From assembly GCF_003334255.1 (NCBI RefSeq), contig NZ_QOWU01000008.1: DNA of 64,000 nt. One strand, given 5' to 3'. Made by a program: the position numbers and the translations under genes. The first letter of the stretch is position 1. Every line of letters begins with the position of its first letter. The notes under the pieces were generated by a model. That model ran no database searches. It saw only the letters and a program-made list of their open reading frames with translations, and was not told the DNA's origin. This DNA is from Escherichia coli (GTDB taxonomy: Bacteria; Pseudomonadota; Gammaproteobacteria; Enterobacterales; Enterobacteriaceae). Shown here piece by piece: positions 5,641 to 27,369 of the stretch.

Positions 5641-9532
<3,892 letters not shown>

Positions 9533-22452: not shown

Positions 22453-22464
22453 TCATCGTCGATA

Positions 22465-22553
22465 TGTAGGCCGGATAAGGCGTTCACGCCGCATCCGGCA
22501 ACCGATGCCTGATGCGACGCGGTCGCGTCTTATCAGGCCTACAGGTCGATGCC
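22465..22553. repeat. REP palindromic elements downstream of pgi
   Basis: ATGTAGGCCGGATAAGGCGTTCACGCCGCATCCGGCA ... GCGTCTTATCAGGCCTACAGG. Confidence 0.8.
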
Positions 22554-22615
22554 GATATGTACATCGTATTCGGCAATTAATACATAGCACGATTGATTAA
22601 ATAACCTTAATAACA

Positions 22616-22642
22616 ATGCCGACGTTATGTCGGCATTTTTTT
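22616..22642 (+). terminator. Rho-independent terminator (pgi transcript)
   Basis: Hairpin ATGCCGAC-GTTA-GTCGGCAT followed by T7. Confidence 0.8.
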
Positions 22643-22950
22643 ATCAGATAAATCCCCTTGTCTGTGATTTAACGGAAATCATACCATGAGGTTAATCCTA
22701 AAATAGATTTTTAATCGTTGTTTATTTCGGAAAATACGCAGATTAATTGCTTTTGTTTTTATTTTAAGTTTATGATTTTTATTGTTATTTAAATATAAGT
22801 TGAAACTTATATTTGATATTCATTCCAATTATCCTAAAACGCCATCGCTAATTCCCCGCGCCGTAATTCGCATGCTTTAGTTGTGTATACTCGATCCCGC
22901 CCGAAATGTTTTTGGGTAAATCTCCATTCATTCAATGAAGGGAAATTGTT

Positions 22951-23193
22951 ATGAAAAAAGTTCTGTATGGCATTTTTGCCATATCTGCGCTTGCGGCGAC
23001 TTCTGCGTGGGCTGCACCTGTACAGGTGGGCGAAGCGGCAGGGTCGGCAGCAACGTCGGTTTCGGCGGGGAGTTCCTCCGCGACCAGCGTCAGCACCGTA
23101 AGCTCGGCGGTGGGTGTCGCGCTTGCGGCAACCGGTGGCGGTGATGGTTCTAATACCGGGACCACCACAACCACGACCACCAGTACCCAGTAA
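22951..23193 (+). CDS. yjbE: YjbE, small secreted low-complexity (Ser/Thr/Gly/Ala-rich) protein
   Basis: 80 aa ORF with signal-peptide-like N-terminus and poly-Thr C-terminus; recognised as first gene of yjbEFGH. Confidence 0.8.
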
Positions 23194-23306
23194 TAAAGTA
23201 TGTATCCCCAAAATAATTCGAGTCATTGCATCTGTGGCTAGAAGTATGAAGGGATTAACCATAACCACACTCCGGTGTGGTTATTCTGCCCCTCTGGAGA
23301 AGAGTC

Positions 23307-23945
23307 GTGAAGCGACCTGCACTCATTCTTATCTGCCTGTTATTACAGGCCTGTTCAGCCACGACTAAAGAGCTGGGCAATTCACTGTGGGACAGTCTGT
23401 TCGGCACGCCAGGCGTACAGCTGACGGATGATGATATTCAAAATATGCCCTACGCCAGCCAGTACATGCAGCTTAATGGCGGGCCGCAGTTATTTGTGGT
23501 GCTGGCCTTCGCTGAAGACGGACAACAAAAATGGGTCACTCAGGATCAGGCTACTCTCGTTACCCAACATGGCCGTCTGGTGAAGACTCTGCTCGGCGGC
23601 GACAACCTGATTGAAGTGAATAACCTTGCTGCCGACCCGCTGATTAAACCCGCACAAATCGTTGATGGCGCAAGCTGGACGCGCACGATGGGCTGGACCG
23701 AGTACCAGCAGGTACGCTACGCCACCGCACGCTCAGTCTTCAAATGGGATGGCACCGATACCGTCAAAGTCGGCAGCGATGAAACCCCGGTTCGCGTGCT
23801 GGACGAAGAAGTCTCCACCGACCAGGCGCGCTGGCATAACCGCTATTGGATCGACAGCGAAGGGCAAATTCGCCAGTCGGAACAGTATCTCGGCGCGGAT
23901 TATTTTCCGGTGAAAACCACTCTCATCAAGGCGGCAAAACAATGA
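23307..23945 (+). CDS. yjbF: YjbF, putative lipoprotein of the yjbEFGH exopolysaccharide locus
   Basis: ORF 23277-23945 trimmed to GTG at 23307 (MKRPALILICLLLQACSATTKE, lipobox LQAC); 212 aa. Confidence 0.8.
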   Translation: MKRPALILICLLLQACSATTKELGNSLWDSLFGTPGVQLTDDDIQNMPYASQYMQLNGGPQLFVVLAFAEDGQQKWVTQDQATLVTQHGRLVKTLLGGDNLIEVNNLAADPLIKPAQIVDGASWTRTMGWTEYQQVRYATARSVFKWDGTDTVKVGSDETPVRVLDEEVSTDQARWHNRYWIDSEGQIRQSEQYLGADYFPVKTTLIKAAKQ

Positions 23946-24679
23946 TTAAACAAACTATTGTCGCGTTGCTTTTGAGTGTGGGAGCGTCATCGGTCTTCGC
24001 GGCAGGAACCGTCAAGGTGTTCAGCAATGGCAGCAGTGAGGCCAAAACGCTAACGGGCGCAGAGCATTTAATCGATCTGGTAGGCCAACCGCGGCTGGCA
24101 AACAGCTGGTGGCCCGGTGCGGTGATTAGCGAAGAGCTGGCAACGGCGGCAGCATTGCGTCAGCAGCAGGCGTTGCTGACACGGCTGGCAGAACAGGGCG
24201 CAGATTCCAGCGCCGACGATGCCGCTGCGATTAACGCCTTACGCCAGCAAATTCAGGCGTTGAAAGTGACGGGCAGGCAAAAAATCAATCTTGATCCCGA
24301 TATCGTCCGCGTTGCCGAACGCGGTAACCCGCCGTTGCAGGGCAACTACACGCTGTGGGTCGGACCACCGCCGTCCACGGTCACGTTGTTCGGGCTTATC
24401 AGCCGTCCTGGCAAGCAGCCATTCACTCCAGGTCGCGACGTGGCGAGCTATCTCTCTGACCAGAGCCTGCTCAGCGGTGCGGATCGCAGCTACGCGTGGG
24501 TGGTTTACCCGGACGGACGCACGCAAAAAGCGCCGGTGGCTTACTGGAACAAGCGTCACGTAGAGCCGATGCCCGGCAGCATTATTTATGTTGGCCTCGC
24601 GGACTCCGTCTGGAGTGAGACGCCTGATGCCCTTAACGCCGACATTCTTCAGACTCTGACGCAGCGGATACCTCAATAA
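23942..24679 (+). CDS. yjbG: YjbG, periplasmic protein of the yjbEFGH locus
   Basis: ORF 23846-24679 trimmed to ATG at 23942 ([22 protein letters not shown], signal peptide); 245 aa; start overlaps yjbF stop (ATGA). Confidence 0.85.
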
Positions 24680-26775
24680 TGAAAAAAAGACATCTGCTTA
24701 GCTTACTGGCGCTGGGCATTAGCACAGCTTGCTACGGCGAAACATATCCTGCGCCCATTGGTCCGTCGCAGTCGGATTTCGGTGGCGTAGGATTATTACA
24801 AACGCCCACCGCGCGTATGGCACGGGAAGGGGAGTTGAGTCTGAACTATCGCGATAACGATCAGTACCGTTATTACTCAGCTTCAGTGCAACTCTTCCCG
24901 TGGCTGGAAACAACGCTGCGCTACACCGACGTGCGCACCCGGCAGTACAGCAGCGTCGAAGCGTTCTCTGGCGATCAAACGTATAAAGATAAAGCCTTCG
25001 ATCTCAAACTGCGTTTGTGGGAAGAGAGTTACTGGCTGCCGCAAGTGGCGGTTGGTGCGCGGGATATCGGCGGTACGGGGCTGTTTGATGCGGAATATCT
25101 TGTTGCCAGCAAAGCCTGGGGGCCGTTCGATTTTACGCTCGGCCTGGGCTGGGGATATTTGGGCACCAGCGGTAATGTGAAAAATCCGCTCTGTTCAGCC
25201 AGTGATAAATATTGCTATCGCGATAACAGCTACAAACAGGCGGGATCTATCGACGGTAGCCAGATGTTCCACGGTCCTGCCTCACTGTTTGGCGGCGTGG
25301 AATACCAGACGCCCTGGCAACCGCTGCGCCTGAAACTGGAGTATGAAGGCAATAATTATCAGCAGGATTTTGCCGGGAAGCTGGAGCAAAAAAGTAAGTT
25401 TAACGTCGGTGCGATTTATCGCGTTACCGATTGGGCCGACGTTAACCTTAGCTATGAACGTGGCAACACCTTTATGTTTGGCGTTACGTTGCGCACCAAC
25501 TTTAACGATCTGCGCCCGTCTTACAACGATAACGCCCGCCCGCAATATCAACCGCAGCCGCAGGATGCCATTTTGCAGTATTCGGTGGTGGCGAATCAGT
25601 TAACGCTGTTGAAATACAATGCCGGACTTGCCGATCCACAGATCCAGGCGAAAGGCGATACGCTGTATGTTACCGGCGAGCAGGTGAAATATCGTGATTC
25701 GCGCGAAGGGATCATCCGTGCGAATCGGATCGTGATGAACGATCTGCCGGATGGGATCAAAACGATCCGCATTACGGAAAATCGCCTTAACATGCCGCAG
25801 GTGACGACGGAAACCGATGTCGCCAGCCTGAAAAATCATCTCGCCGGAGAGCCGTTGGGCCACGAAACGACGCTGGCGCAAAAACGCGTCGAGCCAGTGG
25901 TTCCGCAGTCCACCGAGCAGGGCTGGTATATCGACAAATCACGCTTTGATTTCCATATCGATCCGGTGCTGAACCAGTCGGTCGGTGGCCCGGAAAACTT
26001 TTACATGTATCAGCTGGGCGTGATGGGAACGGCAGATTTGTGGCTGACGGACCATCTGCTGACCACCGGCAGCCTGTTTGCAAATCTTGCCAACAACTAC
26101 GACAAGTTTAACTACACTAATCCTCCGCAGGACTCGCACTTACCGCGCGTGCGTACCCATGTGCGCGAGTATGTGCAGAACGATGTCTATGTGAATAACC
26201 TGCAAGCCAACTACTTCCAGCATCTGGGCAACGGCTTCTACGGTCAGGTCTACGGTGGTTATCTCGAAACCATGTTTGGCGGTGCGGGGGCAGAAGTGTT
26301 GTATCGCCCGCTGGACAGCAACTGGGCGTTTGGTCTGGATGCCAACTACGTTAAACAGCGCGACTGGCGTAGTGCAAAAGATATGATGAAATTCACCGAC
26401 TACAGCGTGAAAACCGGACATCTGACCGCCTACTGGACGCCATCTTTCGCTCAGGATGTGTTAGTTAAAGCCAGCGTCGGGCAGTATCTGGCAGGGGATA
26501 AAGGCGGCACGCTGGAGATCGCCAAACGCTTTGATAGCGGCGTGGTGGTGGGTGGCTATGCCACGATCACTAATGTTTCGAAAGAGGAGTACGGCGAAGG
26601 GGACTTCACCAAAGGCGTGTATGTCTCGGTACCGTTGGATCTCTTCTCGTCTGGCCCGACACGCAGCCGTGCGGCGATTGGCTGGACGCCGCTGACGCGT
26701 GACGGTGGTCAGCAACTTGGGCGTAAGTTCCAGTTGTATGACATGACCAGCGACCGTAGCGTCAATTTCCGCTAA
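24679..26775 (+). CDS. yjbH: YjbH, putative outer-membrane beta-barrel lipoprotein of the yjbEFGH locus
   Basis: 698 aa ORF with signal/lipobox ([11 protein letters not shown]), ends in aromatic residue; ATG overlaps yjbG stop (TAATG). Confidence 0.9.
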
Positions 26776-26785
26776 GTCATGGGAA

Positions 26786-26816
26786 AGGTGCCAGTTTTCG
26801 CACTCACTGGCACCTT
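26786..26816. terminator. Putative bidirectional hairpin between yjbH (+) and yjbT (-)
   Basis: Inverted repeat AGGTGCCAGT..ACTGGCACCT in the 46 bp between convergent stops. Confidence 0.55.
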
Positions 26817-26821
26817 CATTC

Positions 26822-27100
26822 TTAATGGCCTGTCGAGCCATCAGGAACGCAGTTCACTCCCGGTTTGCGATCTGGTGTGTAAAGGCGAAAACATTCTGTC
26901 TTCCTGTCCGTCGATATCGGTTGCAGGTCTGGTTGCCTGAGCGACTGGGCCATCATTGGGCTGGAGACATTGCTTTGCGGTAGGTCGGCTTTATCAGCAG
27001 TACCGAGCGGACCAGCATAAGCAGGAAGAACAGAGACTGATAACATCAAAGCAGCAAAATAAGGCTTCATTTTTACCACCTTTATCAGGTTACGTTTCAT
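26822..27100 (-). CDS. yjbT: Small putative periplasmic protein YjbT
   Basis: 92 aa ORF with internal signal-peptide-like stretch (MKPYFAALMLSVSVLPAYA); true start may be the internal Met. Confidence 0.6.
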   Translation of the reverse strand: MKRNLIKVVKMKPYFAALMLSVSVLPAYAGPLGTADKADLPQSNVSSPMMAQSLRQPDLQPISTDRKTECFRLYTPDRKPGVNCVPDGSTGH

Positions 27101-27199
27101 TTGTTCCAGAGGAACATTGTCGATTTTTCGCGCATTGCTGGTGGCTGGGAATCACCTGAATGGGTGATTTTTGAATTACCGGCTTTGGTGCGGTTTGTC

Positions 27200-27240
27200 T
27201 TGCCGGATGCGCCGCCAGGCGCGGCTTATCCGGCCTACGG
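27200..27240. repeat. REP-like palindromic element
   Basis: GCCGGATGCGCCGCCAGGCGCGGCTTATCCGGCCTAC. Confidence 0.6.
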
Positions 27241-27369
27241 GTAGGTATATCCGGCTTTGGTGGAGGCGCGCTCCAAATCCAGGTTGAACAAAACATACAC
27301 AAAAAATATAGATCTCCGTCACATTTTTGCGTTATACAGGAAGCTCGCCACTGTGAAGGAGGTACTGCT

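Follow-up and report, generated by a model that had tools for sequence, protein, structure and literature searches.

The yjbEFGH operon of Escherichia coli occupies positions 22951-26775 of the stretch of DNA analysed here, 64,000 nucleotides (nt) of contig NZ_QOWU01000008.1 in assembly GCF_003334255.1, which we call the window. An earlier, sequence-only reading had named these genes as an envelope/exopolysaccharide module, a paralogue of gfcABCD under heavy Rcs regulation, and annotation, Pfam and the literature all agree with it. Positions 22453-27100 are 100% identical to an E. coli chromosome and 99.9% identical to a K-12-type strain annotated in RefSeq, where the genes run, as they do in MG1655, in the order pgi, yjbE, yjbF, yjbG, yjbH, yjbT (on the opposite strand), psiE and xylE. 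The window thus carries an allele of the K-12 operon (b4026-b4029; Ferrieres et al. 2007, Microbiology 153:1070): it is the same locus, with 99.9-100% DNA identity and no difference in gene order from pgi to psiE or in annotated starts.

A sequence search found at least 80% of the query covered in 5414 of the 5426 complete E. coli genomes. For comparison beyond the species, we collected 80 orthologous loci from across the Enterobacteriaceae, one genome per species, with YjbF identities of 64-98%. Synteny of pgi and yjbEFGH is kept throughout these loci of many genera, and psiE is mostly the next gene. The region is the published yjbEFGH operon, part of the E. coli core genome and an Enterobacteriaceae module paralogous to gfcABCD.

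Its status as an operon is in print (PMC8592465, PMC5461412, PMC8117528), and the statements in PMC5461412 and PMC5651002 that cite Ferrieres 2007 give operon status together with Rcs/RcsA dependence. Osmotic induction and negative control by RpoS are likewise known from the literature and were not computed here. All four yjb genes are co-induced in published transcriptomes (PMC3599342, PMC5105897), the fold-change tables of which do not give the abundance of yjbE relative to yjbFGH.

The four genes and their products

The operon comprises the following features, all on the plus strand.

22951-23193, plus strand: yjbE, an 80-residue precursor with a Sec signal peptide, predicted to be cleaved after AWA21
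23261-23284, plus strand: intercistronic hairpin ATAACCACAC-TCCG-GTGTGGTTAT, recognised by folding and conservation
23296-23299, plus strand: Shine-Dalgarno sequence GGAG of yjbF
23307-23945, plus strand: yjbF, a 212-residue outer-membrane lipoprotein with lipobox LQAC and Cys16, paralogue of GfcB
23942-24679, plus strand: yjbG, a 245-residue periplasmic protein of the GfcC family
24679-26775, plus strand: yjbH, a 698-residue outer-membrane protein predicted to have two beta-barrels and a periplasmic middle domain

YjbE had been described as a signal-peptide-bearing, low-complexity Ser/Thr/Gly/Ala protein ending in poly-Thr, and its composition bears this out. The mature protein has 59 residues, almost all of them Thr, Ser, Ala, Gly or Val (T13 S12 A11 G9 V7), and ends T7-S-T-Q. 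Pfam PF11106 (YjbE) matches over residues 1-79 of 79 (E = 5.5e-33). Among 78 orthologues (65 of them distinct), the last 29 residues scarcely change, and most of the proteins have seven Thr in a row, encoded by mixed codons. Judged from these alignments, such conservation is striking for a low-complexity protein. BLASTP finds no similarity between YjbE and GfcA, so that homology of the two first genes is not established. A small, Thr-rich first gene with a signal peptide is nevertheless present in gfc and in the loci L083, L084, L086 and L087. By eye only, the ends of YjbE and GfcA look alike, with the form GDG...TTTST(Q/R).

The lipobox LQAC is plain in the sequence of YjbF, as the description of this protein as a lipoprotein required. 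The protein matches Pfam PF11102 (E = 8.6e-64, model positions 2-188 of 189), is 39% identical to GfcB, and finds Protein Data Bank (PDB) entry 2IN5 (YmcC/GfcB) at E = 3e-43. YjbG, correctly taken to be periplasmic, carries the N- and C-terminal domains of the GfcC family (Pfam PF20616, E = 1e-49; PF06251, E = 1e-42), with 42% identity to GfcC and a PDB match to GfcC itself (3P42, E = 2e-55).

YjbH matches Pfam PF06082 over its full length and is 65% identical to GfcD. An AlphaFold2 model built from 63 sequences (mean predicted local distance difference test score, pLDDT, 88.6; predicted template modelling score, pTM, 0.84) has strands at 52-274, an alpha/beta domain at 301-389 and further strands at 423-669, which is the pattern of two barrels and a periplasmic domain described for YjbH/GfcD. 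The two-barrel family has been treated in PMC8346858 and PMC9603273, and a lateral-gate model of GfcD in PMC11494523. A PDB search returned no solved relative of YjbH and no solved two-barrel structure.

The suggestion that YjbH is a beta-barrel-like lipoprotein therefore fares unevenly: the barrels are predicted, but the lipobox is poor. The residues before Cys18 are I-S-T-A, with Ser at position -3, which departs from the lipobox [LVI][ASTVI][GAS]C, and the Cys is absent from the YjbH homologue of L086. RefSeq annotates YjbH as a putative lipoprotein. GfcD is cut after Ala21 by signal peptidase I and is not acylated, as established by mass spectrometry and Edman sequencing (PMC8592465); the aligned site in YjbH is G20/E21. 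By analogy with GfcD, YjbH most likely carries no lipid and sits in the outer membrane as a two-barrel protein.

Relatives of YjbH fall into 2660 clusters at 50% identity, as found by a profile-free scan of 1.84 billion cluster representatives. Many are 930-1400 residues long (P0123, P0125, P0127 and others), with the YjbH part beginning near residue 250-350. These are presumably natural GfcC-GfcD fusions, the extra 250-350 or so N-terminal residues being of the expected size, and such fusions have been reported, for example OtnG of Burkholderia (PMC8592465). Fusions of this size support a physical partnership of YjbG and YjbH.

The comparison with gfcABCD-like operons that the sequence-only reading had called for gives a clear result. 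Identities for the second, third and fourth proteins are, as above, 39, 42 and 65%, and the layout of K-12 gfcABCD is the same: a small Thr-rich protein with a signal peptide, a lipoprotein, a GfcC-family protein and a two-barrel protein, encoded with a 106-nt gap containing a hairpin between gfcA and gfcB, a 4-nt overlap of gfcB and gfcC and a 1-nt overlap of gfcC and gfcD. The gfc hairpin (CCCGGT...ACCGGG, then CTTT) has the same position as that of yjb and an unrelated sequence. Every sequence-level feature of a GfcABCD-like module that we tested is present in yjbEFGH.

There are also differences. The yjb operon lacks the wza-wzb-wzc-like genes gfcE, etp and etk after its last gene: here yjbH is followed by a hairpin, yjbT and psiE, none of these paralogues is found in 79 orthologous loci, and yjbEFGH is therefore not a group 4 capsule operon. 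In addition, yjbEFGH belongs to the core genome and is Rcs-controlled, and the cargo of Gfc is an O-antigen capsule whereas that of Yjb is undefined. Binding of GfcB to GfcC with a dissociation constant near 100 nM, and docking of the pair on GfcD, have been measured for Gfc (PMC8592465), the one system of the two for which a physical complex is known. From the synthase-dependent exopolysaccharide porins PgaA, BcsC, PelB and AlgE and the amyloid channel FapF, YjbH differs by its low sequence identity (8-13%), by having two barrels in one chain and by the lack of a linked synthase.

Gene junctions and the yjbE-yjbF hairpin

The overlaps ATGA at 23942-23945 and TAATG at 24677-24681 can be read directly from the sequence, as had been noted. 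They are kept across 79 Enterobacteriaceae loci. The yjbF/yjbG junction is ATGA in 69, TAATG in seven and GTGA in one; at the yjbG/yjbH junction 53 loci have TAATG, 17 have some other overlap of 1 or 4 nt, and eight have a gap of 0-2 nt. The exceptions are L043, a frameshifted assembly, at each junction, and L073, where yjbF and yjbG overlap by 11 nt. Conservation on this scale marks the overlaps as a selected feature and not an annotation artefact. Overlaps and translational coupling in gfc/yjb-type operons have been discussed before (PMC8592465).

It is highly improbable that the genes are transcribed independently and the overlaps result from wrong starts. The only circumstance that leans in this direction, and it lends no real support, is that the yjbF open reading frame (ORF) reaches 30 nt upstream of the RefSeq start, GTG 23307, to GTG 23277 within the hairpin. 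Besides the conserved overlaps, the annotated starts yield proper signal peptides, the promoter scan found no plus-strand promoter-like site inside the operon, and both the co-induction of the four genes and their operon status are published.

To speak of a tightly coupled four-gene module, as the sequence-only reading did, is to go too far. Only yjbF, yjbG and yjbH overlap; yjbE lies 113 nt upstream of yjbF, with a strong hairpin between them. Every locus but one starts yjbF with GTG, and the Shine-Dalgarno arrangement GGAGAAGAGTC-GTG is kept beside it in most, so far as can be judged from sequence pointing to independent initiation of yjbF translation at GTG 23307.

Of 79 loci, 64 have a yjbE-yjbF spacer of 60-65 nt; in Escherichia it is 113-114 nt. 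Insertions of small repeats account for the longer spacers: a remnant 5' of the hairpin in Escherichia, which we take to be related to the enterobacterial repetitive intergenic consensus (ERIC), and elements resembling repetitive extragenic palindromic (REP) sequences 3' of it in some Citrobacter and Enterobacter.

23197-23257, no strand assigned: ERIC-like short repeat of about 60 nt between the yjbE stop codon and the hairpin, present in Escherichia and absent from most other genera

The name ERIC is tentative, given for a likeness to the consensus of that family. A Citrobacter locus (L031, about 5814-5940) has a full-length element at the same site and with the same ends as the Escherichia insert. 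The spacer accepts insertions to either side of the hairpin, but no locus has lost the hairpin or the ribosome-binding site of yjbF.

The hairpin itself is the most constant part of this region. The spacer folds at -33 kcal/mol (z = -2.9 against shuffled sequence), and the 22-nt motif TAACCACAC-N4-GTGTGGTTA occurs once per locus, always at this place, in all 80 Enterobacteriaceae that have the spacer. The loop is TTCG in 72 of these, TGCG in three, TCCG in three and TACG in two; all are UNCG loops closed by C-G, and C(UNCG)G is a class of extra-stable tetraloop. This pattern, which is non-palindromic and confined to the sense strand, is the main argument for selection at the level of RNA. An identical stem is found in two Erwiniaceae, Pantoea agglomerans and Paramixta manurensis, with the loops GCCT and GTTC and with TTTTTT after the stem, which brings the total to 82 of 82 loci. 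The hairpin lies at 3056-3079 in L083 and at 3054-3077 in L084.

In an alignment of 38 distinct hairpin sequences from the two families, nine of the ten pairs never vary. Two variant E. coli alleles, when aligned, differ in the flanks and not at all in the hairpin. In 5421 of 5426 E. coli genomes the element occurs just once, and the idea that it belongs to a repeat family was dropped because there are no other copies in E. coli. The total invariance of the stem exceeds what structure requires and is not explained by structure alone.

As a terminator the hairpin is not canonical, in that it lacks the usual G+C-rich stem followed by at least five T in eight: four of the ten stem pairs are G-C, and in most other genera the stem is followed by TTTTG or TTTCG. 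We propose that it is a leaky terminator, a 3' stabiliser or both, and that it probably sets expression of yjbE above that of yjbFGH. This dosing proposal follows from the position of the hairpin directly after yjbE together with the reported excess of yjbE messenger RNA (mRNA) over yjbFGH mRNA, as given in the statement of PMC8208086 that cites Ferrieres 2007.

Analogous arrangements are found in distant operons. That of L087, with 45% YjbH identity, has a small Thr-rich gene with a signal peptide, then the canonical terminator GGCCAGC-CATT-GCTGGCC-TTTTTT, then a yjbF-like gene; L086, with 49% YjbH identity, has a small Thr-rich gene and a structured spacer. Familiar cases of stem-loops that adjust expression between the genes of one operon are the malE-malF REP, papB-papA and the puf operon of Rhodobacter. 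These have in common with yjb a stable hairpin after the gene expressed in excess and an excess of the upstream mRNA; the yjb stem differs in being invariant across two bacterial families without covariation.

The 5' arm of the hairpin, AACCACAC, resembles the poly-Thr codons ACA ACC ACG ACC at 23164-23184. We do not favour an alternative pairing of the 3' arm with these codons (ACAACCAC against AUAACCAC), since the ERIC-like insert separates the two in E. coli and nothing else speaks for it.

The region upstream of yjbE and the flanks of the operon

An alignment of 74 orthologous pgi-yjbE spacers revealed three kinds of conserved block, and the search for RcsAB boxes proposed by the earlier reading yields a conserved candidate among them.

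22687-22700, plus strand: RcsAB-box-like site TGAGGTTAATCCTA, candidate operator for RcsA-RcsB
22882-22891, plus strand: conserved block TGTGTATACT, with the putative -10 hexamer TATACT at 22886-22891
22898-22950, plus strand: predicted 5' untranslated region (UTR) of about 50 nt, highly conserved, with the Shine-Dalgarno sequence AAGGGA at 22938-22943, 8 nt before the ATG

The candidate box lies within the conserved block TGAGGTTAATCCTAAAA, which spans 22687-22703, and is the sole match to TNRGRNNNNTCYNA in the spacer. A looser form, TSAGNTTWATCYKAAA, with ten invariant positions, is found in 73 of the 74 spacers, as against 2% of shuffled windows. The invariant positions T.AG....TC..A coincide with the published RcsB/RcsAB box TN(G/A)GAN4TC(T/C)NA, from which the E. 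coli site differs at one position (G for A at position 5). So does the closely similar rcsA box, TAAGGTTTATCCGA (PMC7913699). The distance from box to -10 block falls into classes of 185-187, 196-200 and 208-211 base pairs (bp), in steps of about one helical turn (about 11-12 bp), which favours a role as DNA operator of the yjbE promoter. We regard 22687-22700 as a candidate operator for activation by RcsA-RcsB.

The 10-mer TGTGTATACT is identical in 70 of the 74 loci and lies 65-71 nt before the ATG. The promoter scan made no call at the TATACT site, since there is no good -35; a conserved TATACT without a good -35 is what we would read as the -10 of an activator-dependent promoter, and transcription would then start near 22898. 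The predicted 5' UTR folds no better than shuffled sequence (z = -1.0), and we claim no structure for it.

The remainder of the 498-bp pgi-yjbE spacer is a composite.

22452: end of pgi
22455-22560, no strand assigned: repeat of the REP/bacterial interspersed mosaic element type downstream of pgi, recognised by Rfam naRNA4 and the nested inverted repeats I1, I5 and I6
22605-22754, minus strand: match to STnc430 (Rfam RF02053), an enterobacterial small RNA (sRNA) candidate, over the full model at 79 bits (gathering score 47)
22615-22637, plus strand: intrinsic terminator of pgi called by the terminator scan, with stem AATGCCGAC/GTCGGCATT followed by TTTTTTAT
22640-22880, no strand assigned: very AT-rich tract

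The operon had been said to stand behind about 400 bp of AT-rich leader. The low G+C content (GC) is real (26.5-29% across 22600-22899), but the GC-rich REP element and the pgi terminator come first, only about 240 bp are very AT-rich (GC 0.265-0.29), and the predicted 5' UTR accounts for about 50 nt. In the 74-locus alignment the AT-rich tract is poorly conserved except for short blocks. It contains a perfect 11-bp palindrome, AAATATAAGTT-GA-AACTTATATTT at 22791-22814, with the layout of RcsAB-like half-sites; it was rejected as a second box because other genera do not conserve it.

The REP repeat, in which Rfam naRNA4 (REP-derived) matches 22469-22539 at 79.5 bits against a gathering score of 59.5, is functionally outside the yjbE leader. 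The first 140 or so bases of the query match many places per genome (median 33). The pgi terminator may work in both directions, and its hairpin doubles as the 3' end of the minus-strand STnc430 match. At the other end of that match is a sigma-70-like site on the minus strand, ATAACA-16-TAAAAT at 22788-22761, with a predicted start near 22754. STnc430 matches occur at the same position and strand in seven of 11 other genera tested (64-164 bits), with the highest scores in Citrobacter koseri and Salmonella (158-164 bits). The MG1655 annotation has no sRNA at this position.

Downstream, the operon is separated from a convergent gene by a further hairpin.

26785-26816, no strand assigned: hairpin between the convergent genes yjbH and yjbT, with an 11-bp stem AAGGTGCCAGT/ACTGGCACCTT and a 10-nt loop
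26822-27100, minus strand: yjbT, 92 residues with a signal peptide, annotated to the PF17089 family

The fold of 26765-26850 (-29.5 kcal/mol, z = -2.9) makes 26785-26816 the probable end of the operon transcript and a likely bidirectional terminator, which the terminator scan missed because of the 10-nt loop and a weak U tract. Among the 80 loci yjbT occurs in Escherichia only, plus one weak match (51%) in Kluyvera georgiana, and it has the look of a lineage-restricted insertion between yjbH and psiE. An ORF for 47 residues at 27101-27244 on the plus strand is called a hypothetical protein in one RefSeq record and not in MG1655; a weak REP/naRNA4-like match covers 27143-27235 of it, and the ORF is probably a false call made in repeat sequence. 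NCBIfam gives no match for any of the five proteins, and the RefSeq protein names evidently derive from Pfam-type models. On the far side of pgi, positions 418-614 of locus L001 are an annotated lysine riboswitch upstream of lysC, adjoining pgi; Rfam finds it in L048, L062, L077 and L081 as well, as expected.

Function of the module

The reading that we favour, with good confidence, is that yjbEFGH encodes a stress-induced outer-membrane apparatus for the export or assembly of a surface polymer, organised as an operon with the regulation and stoichiometry that follow. Envelope stress would switch the operon on. RcsA-RcsB, known from the literature as the activator, would act from the RcsAB-like box about 200 bp upstream, across the AT-rich tract and with the phasing kept, on a promoter with the conserved -10 TATACT and no good -35, so that transcription would begin about 50 nt upstream of yjbE. 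YjbE would be translated alone, and the hairpin, with its C(UNCG)G loop in Enterobacteriaceae, would either stop part of the transcripts or protect the 3' end of yjbE. In this way the small Thr-rich YjbE would come to be in excess over the machinery: the hairpin is there in the sequence and the mRNA excess is in the literature, and the causal link between them is what we propose.

Read-through RNA would carry yjbF, with its own Shine-Dalgarno sequence and GTG. The starts of yjbG and yjbH lie inside the preceding stops, an arrangement that would couple their translation and fix the stoichiometry. Homology with the Gfc proteins (GfcB, GfcC and GfcD) suggests that YjbF, a lipoprotein, pairs with periplasmic YjbG and that this heterodimer docks on YjbH. 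YjbH, non-lipidated, is predicted to fold as a 12-stranded N-terminal barrel like those of FapF and KdgM, a periplasmic domain and a C-terminal barrel like those of PgaA, BcsC and PelB. The cargo may be a polysaccharide, possibly lipid-anchored, passing through the C-terminal barrel as modelled for GfcD (PMC11494523), with YjbE as partner, anchor or co-cargo. YjbE may also be toxic if it is made without its machinery.

Several points weigh against this account. There are no polysaccharide synthesis or wza-wzb-wzc genes linked to the operon, and the polymer was never defined (PMC5461412). The 38 distinct hairpin sequences hold no compensatory change in the stem, which leaves the UNCG loop pattern and analogy as the backing for the structure; after the stem E. 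coli has TTCTGCCC, which makes a poor U tract, and the site went uncalled in the terminator scan. As for the box, no match to the 14-nt RcsAB consensus TaAGaatatTCctA occurs in the spacer within three mismatches, the E. coli site having four. Across the window the degenerate box motif shows no enrichment (11 occurrences, 9.4 expected), so that its weight comes from conservation across loci only. The box also sits inside the STnc430 match, an alternative source of its conservation. The start site, the binding of RcsA-RcsB and termination or processing at the hairpin are all steps that we infer.

One alternative, unlikely in our view, is that the module exports no polymer of its own and instead modulates the anchoring or shedding of colanic acid and lipid-linked glycans, and with them outer-membrane homeostasis. 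No glycosyltransferase, flippase, polymerase or wza/wzb/wzc gene flanks the operon in any of 79 loci, the neighbours being pgi and psiE. Mutations in yjbEFGH alter the anchoring of colanic acid and sedimentation (PMC8117528), the lateral-gate model proposes export of lipid-anchored chains (PMC11494523), and the "Yjb exopolysaccharide (EPS)" was never structurally defined (PMC5461412). In Salmonella, however, deletion of yjb in a wza background abolished the residual uronic-acid EPS, and the authors of that work infer a distinct polymer (PMC5461412). Somewhat less probable still is that YjbE is the cargo. Rich in Thr and possibly O-glycosylated or amyloid-like, it would use the FapF-like N-terminal barrel of YjbH for its export or anchoring while the C-terminal barrel handled glycan, to give a protein-anchored capsule layer. 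This idea has been raised for GfcA and GfcD (PMC8592465, PMC9603273). It gains from the conservation of YjbE beyond what low complexity leads one to expect, including the seven-Thr run in most orthologues, from the small Thr-rich signal-peptide gene that precedes the machinery even at 45-49% YjbH identity, and from a hairpin that implies a need for YjbE in excess. Against this, neither YjbE nor GfcA has been seen directly to leave the periplasm or to carry glycan, and GfcA is annotated as an inner-membrane protein. E. coli K-12 is not known to have a general O-glycosylation system. Modelling lends no help either: an AlphaFold2 fusion of YjbH, linker and mature YjbE, run with 15 paired homologues (YjbH with YjbE from 14 loci, and GfcD with GfcA) and 39 unpaired ones, gave YjbE a pLDDT of 22-26, except for about ten N-terminal residues at 58, and no confident docking.

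Two further alternatives concern the control elements within the apparatus that we favour. The block at 22687-22703 could be conserved as the functional core of a minus-strand STnc430 RNA and not as an RcsAB operator, which we also think unlikely. Rfam scores the match above its gathering threshold in E. coli, and again in seven of 11 other genera without a change of place or strand; the block is the best-conserved single-stranded stretch of the model, and a minus-strand promoter-like site stands at the right distance. Yet the distance classes to the yjbE -10, some 11-12 bp apart, are expected of an operator and not of an sRNA, the positions that never vary match those of the published box, two papers that mention STnc430 concern other loci, and no sRNA is annotated here in K-12. 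The operator and sRNA readings compete without being mutually exclusive. It is quite improbable that the yjbE-yjbF palindrome is a DNA operator for a dimeric regulator, or a site for a sequence-specific RNA-binding protein, in place of a simple structural hairpin. A structural hairpin should drift, as the pgi terminator does, and across two families this one has not. The sense-strand, non-palindromic T-N-C-G loop of Enterobacteriaceae would, however, make no sense in an operator with DNA symmetry, gfc and distant homologous operons have analogous but unrelated hairpins at this point, and a motif that is single-copy in E. coli has no apparent regulon. A bolder combination, for which we see only a small chance, is that the hairpin works as a dedicated RNA element, recognised by its sequence, for dosing YjbE against its exporter, with YjbE as an exported or anchored Thr-rich polypeptide, possibly glycosylated, that passes through the FapF-like YjbH barrel. 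If that were true, yjbEFGH and gfcABCD would be protein-plus-glycan co-export systems and not plain polysaccharide porins.

It is important to separate what is already in print from what the comparison contributes. Operon status, Rcs control, paralogy with gfcABCD, the 1-4 bp overlaps read as translational coupling (PMC8592465), the two-barrel fold and the Thr-rich protein as possible cargo have all been published, and the sequence-only reading as written adds nothing to that picture. Its remark that the molecular roles are poorly defined holds for the polymer and for YjbE, but overlooks published structures of GfcB and GfcC, the GfcB-GfcC-GfcD complex and the two-barrel and lateral-gate model of GfcD/YjbH (PMC8592465, PMC8346858, PMC9603273, PMC11494523). 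The phased, conserved RcsAB-like box, the conserved -10 block, the STnc430 overlap and the cross-family invariance of the hairpin with its UNCG loop are undescribed in the literature covered, which excludes Ferrieres 2007 and Ionescu and Belkin 2009, and are possibly not new.

YjbH-type proteins form one of the largest families of outer-membrane proteins, and the yjb genes are among those most strongly induced by Rcs. The comparative results supply handles for work on them: an exact candidate RcsAB operator with its phasing, a putative -10 and a 22-nt element. The residual interest lies mainly in the invariant hairpin and in the role of YjbE. Mutating the 22-nt element should shift the ratio of YjbE to its machinery, and a hairpin that sets this ratio could explain the envelope stress that results from insertion between yjbE and yjbF.

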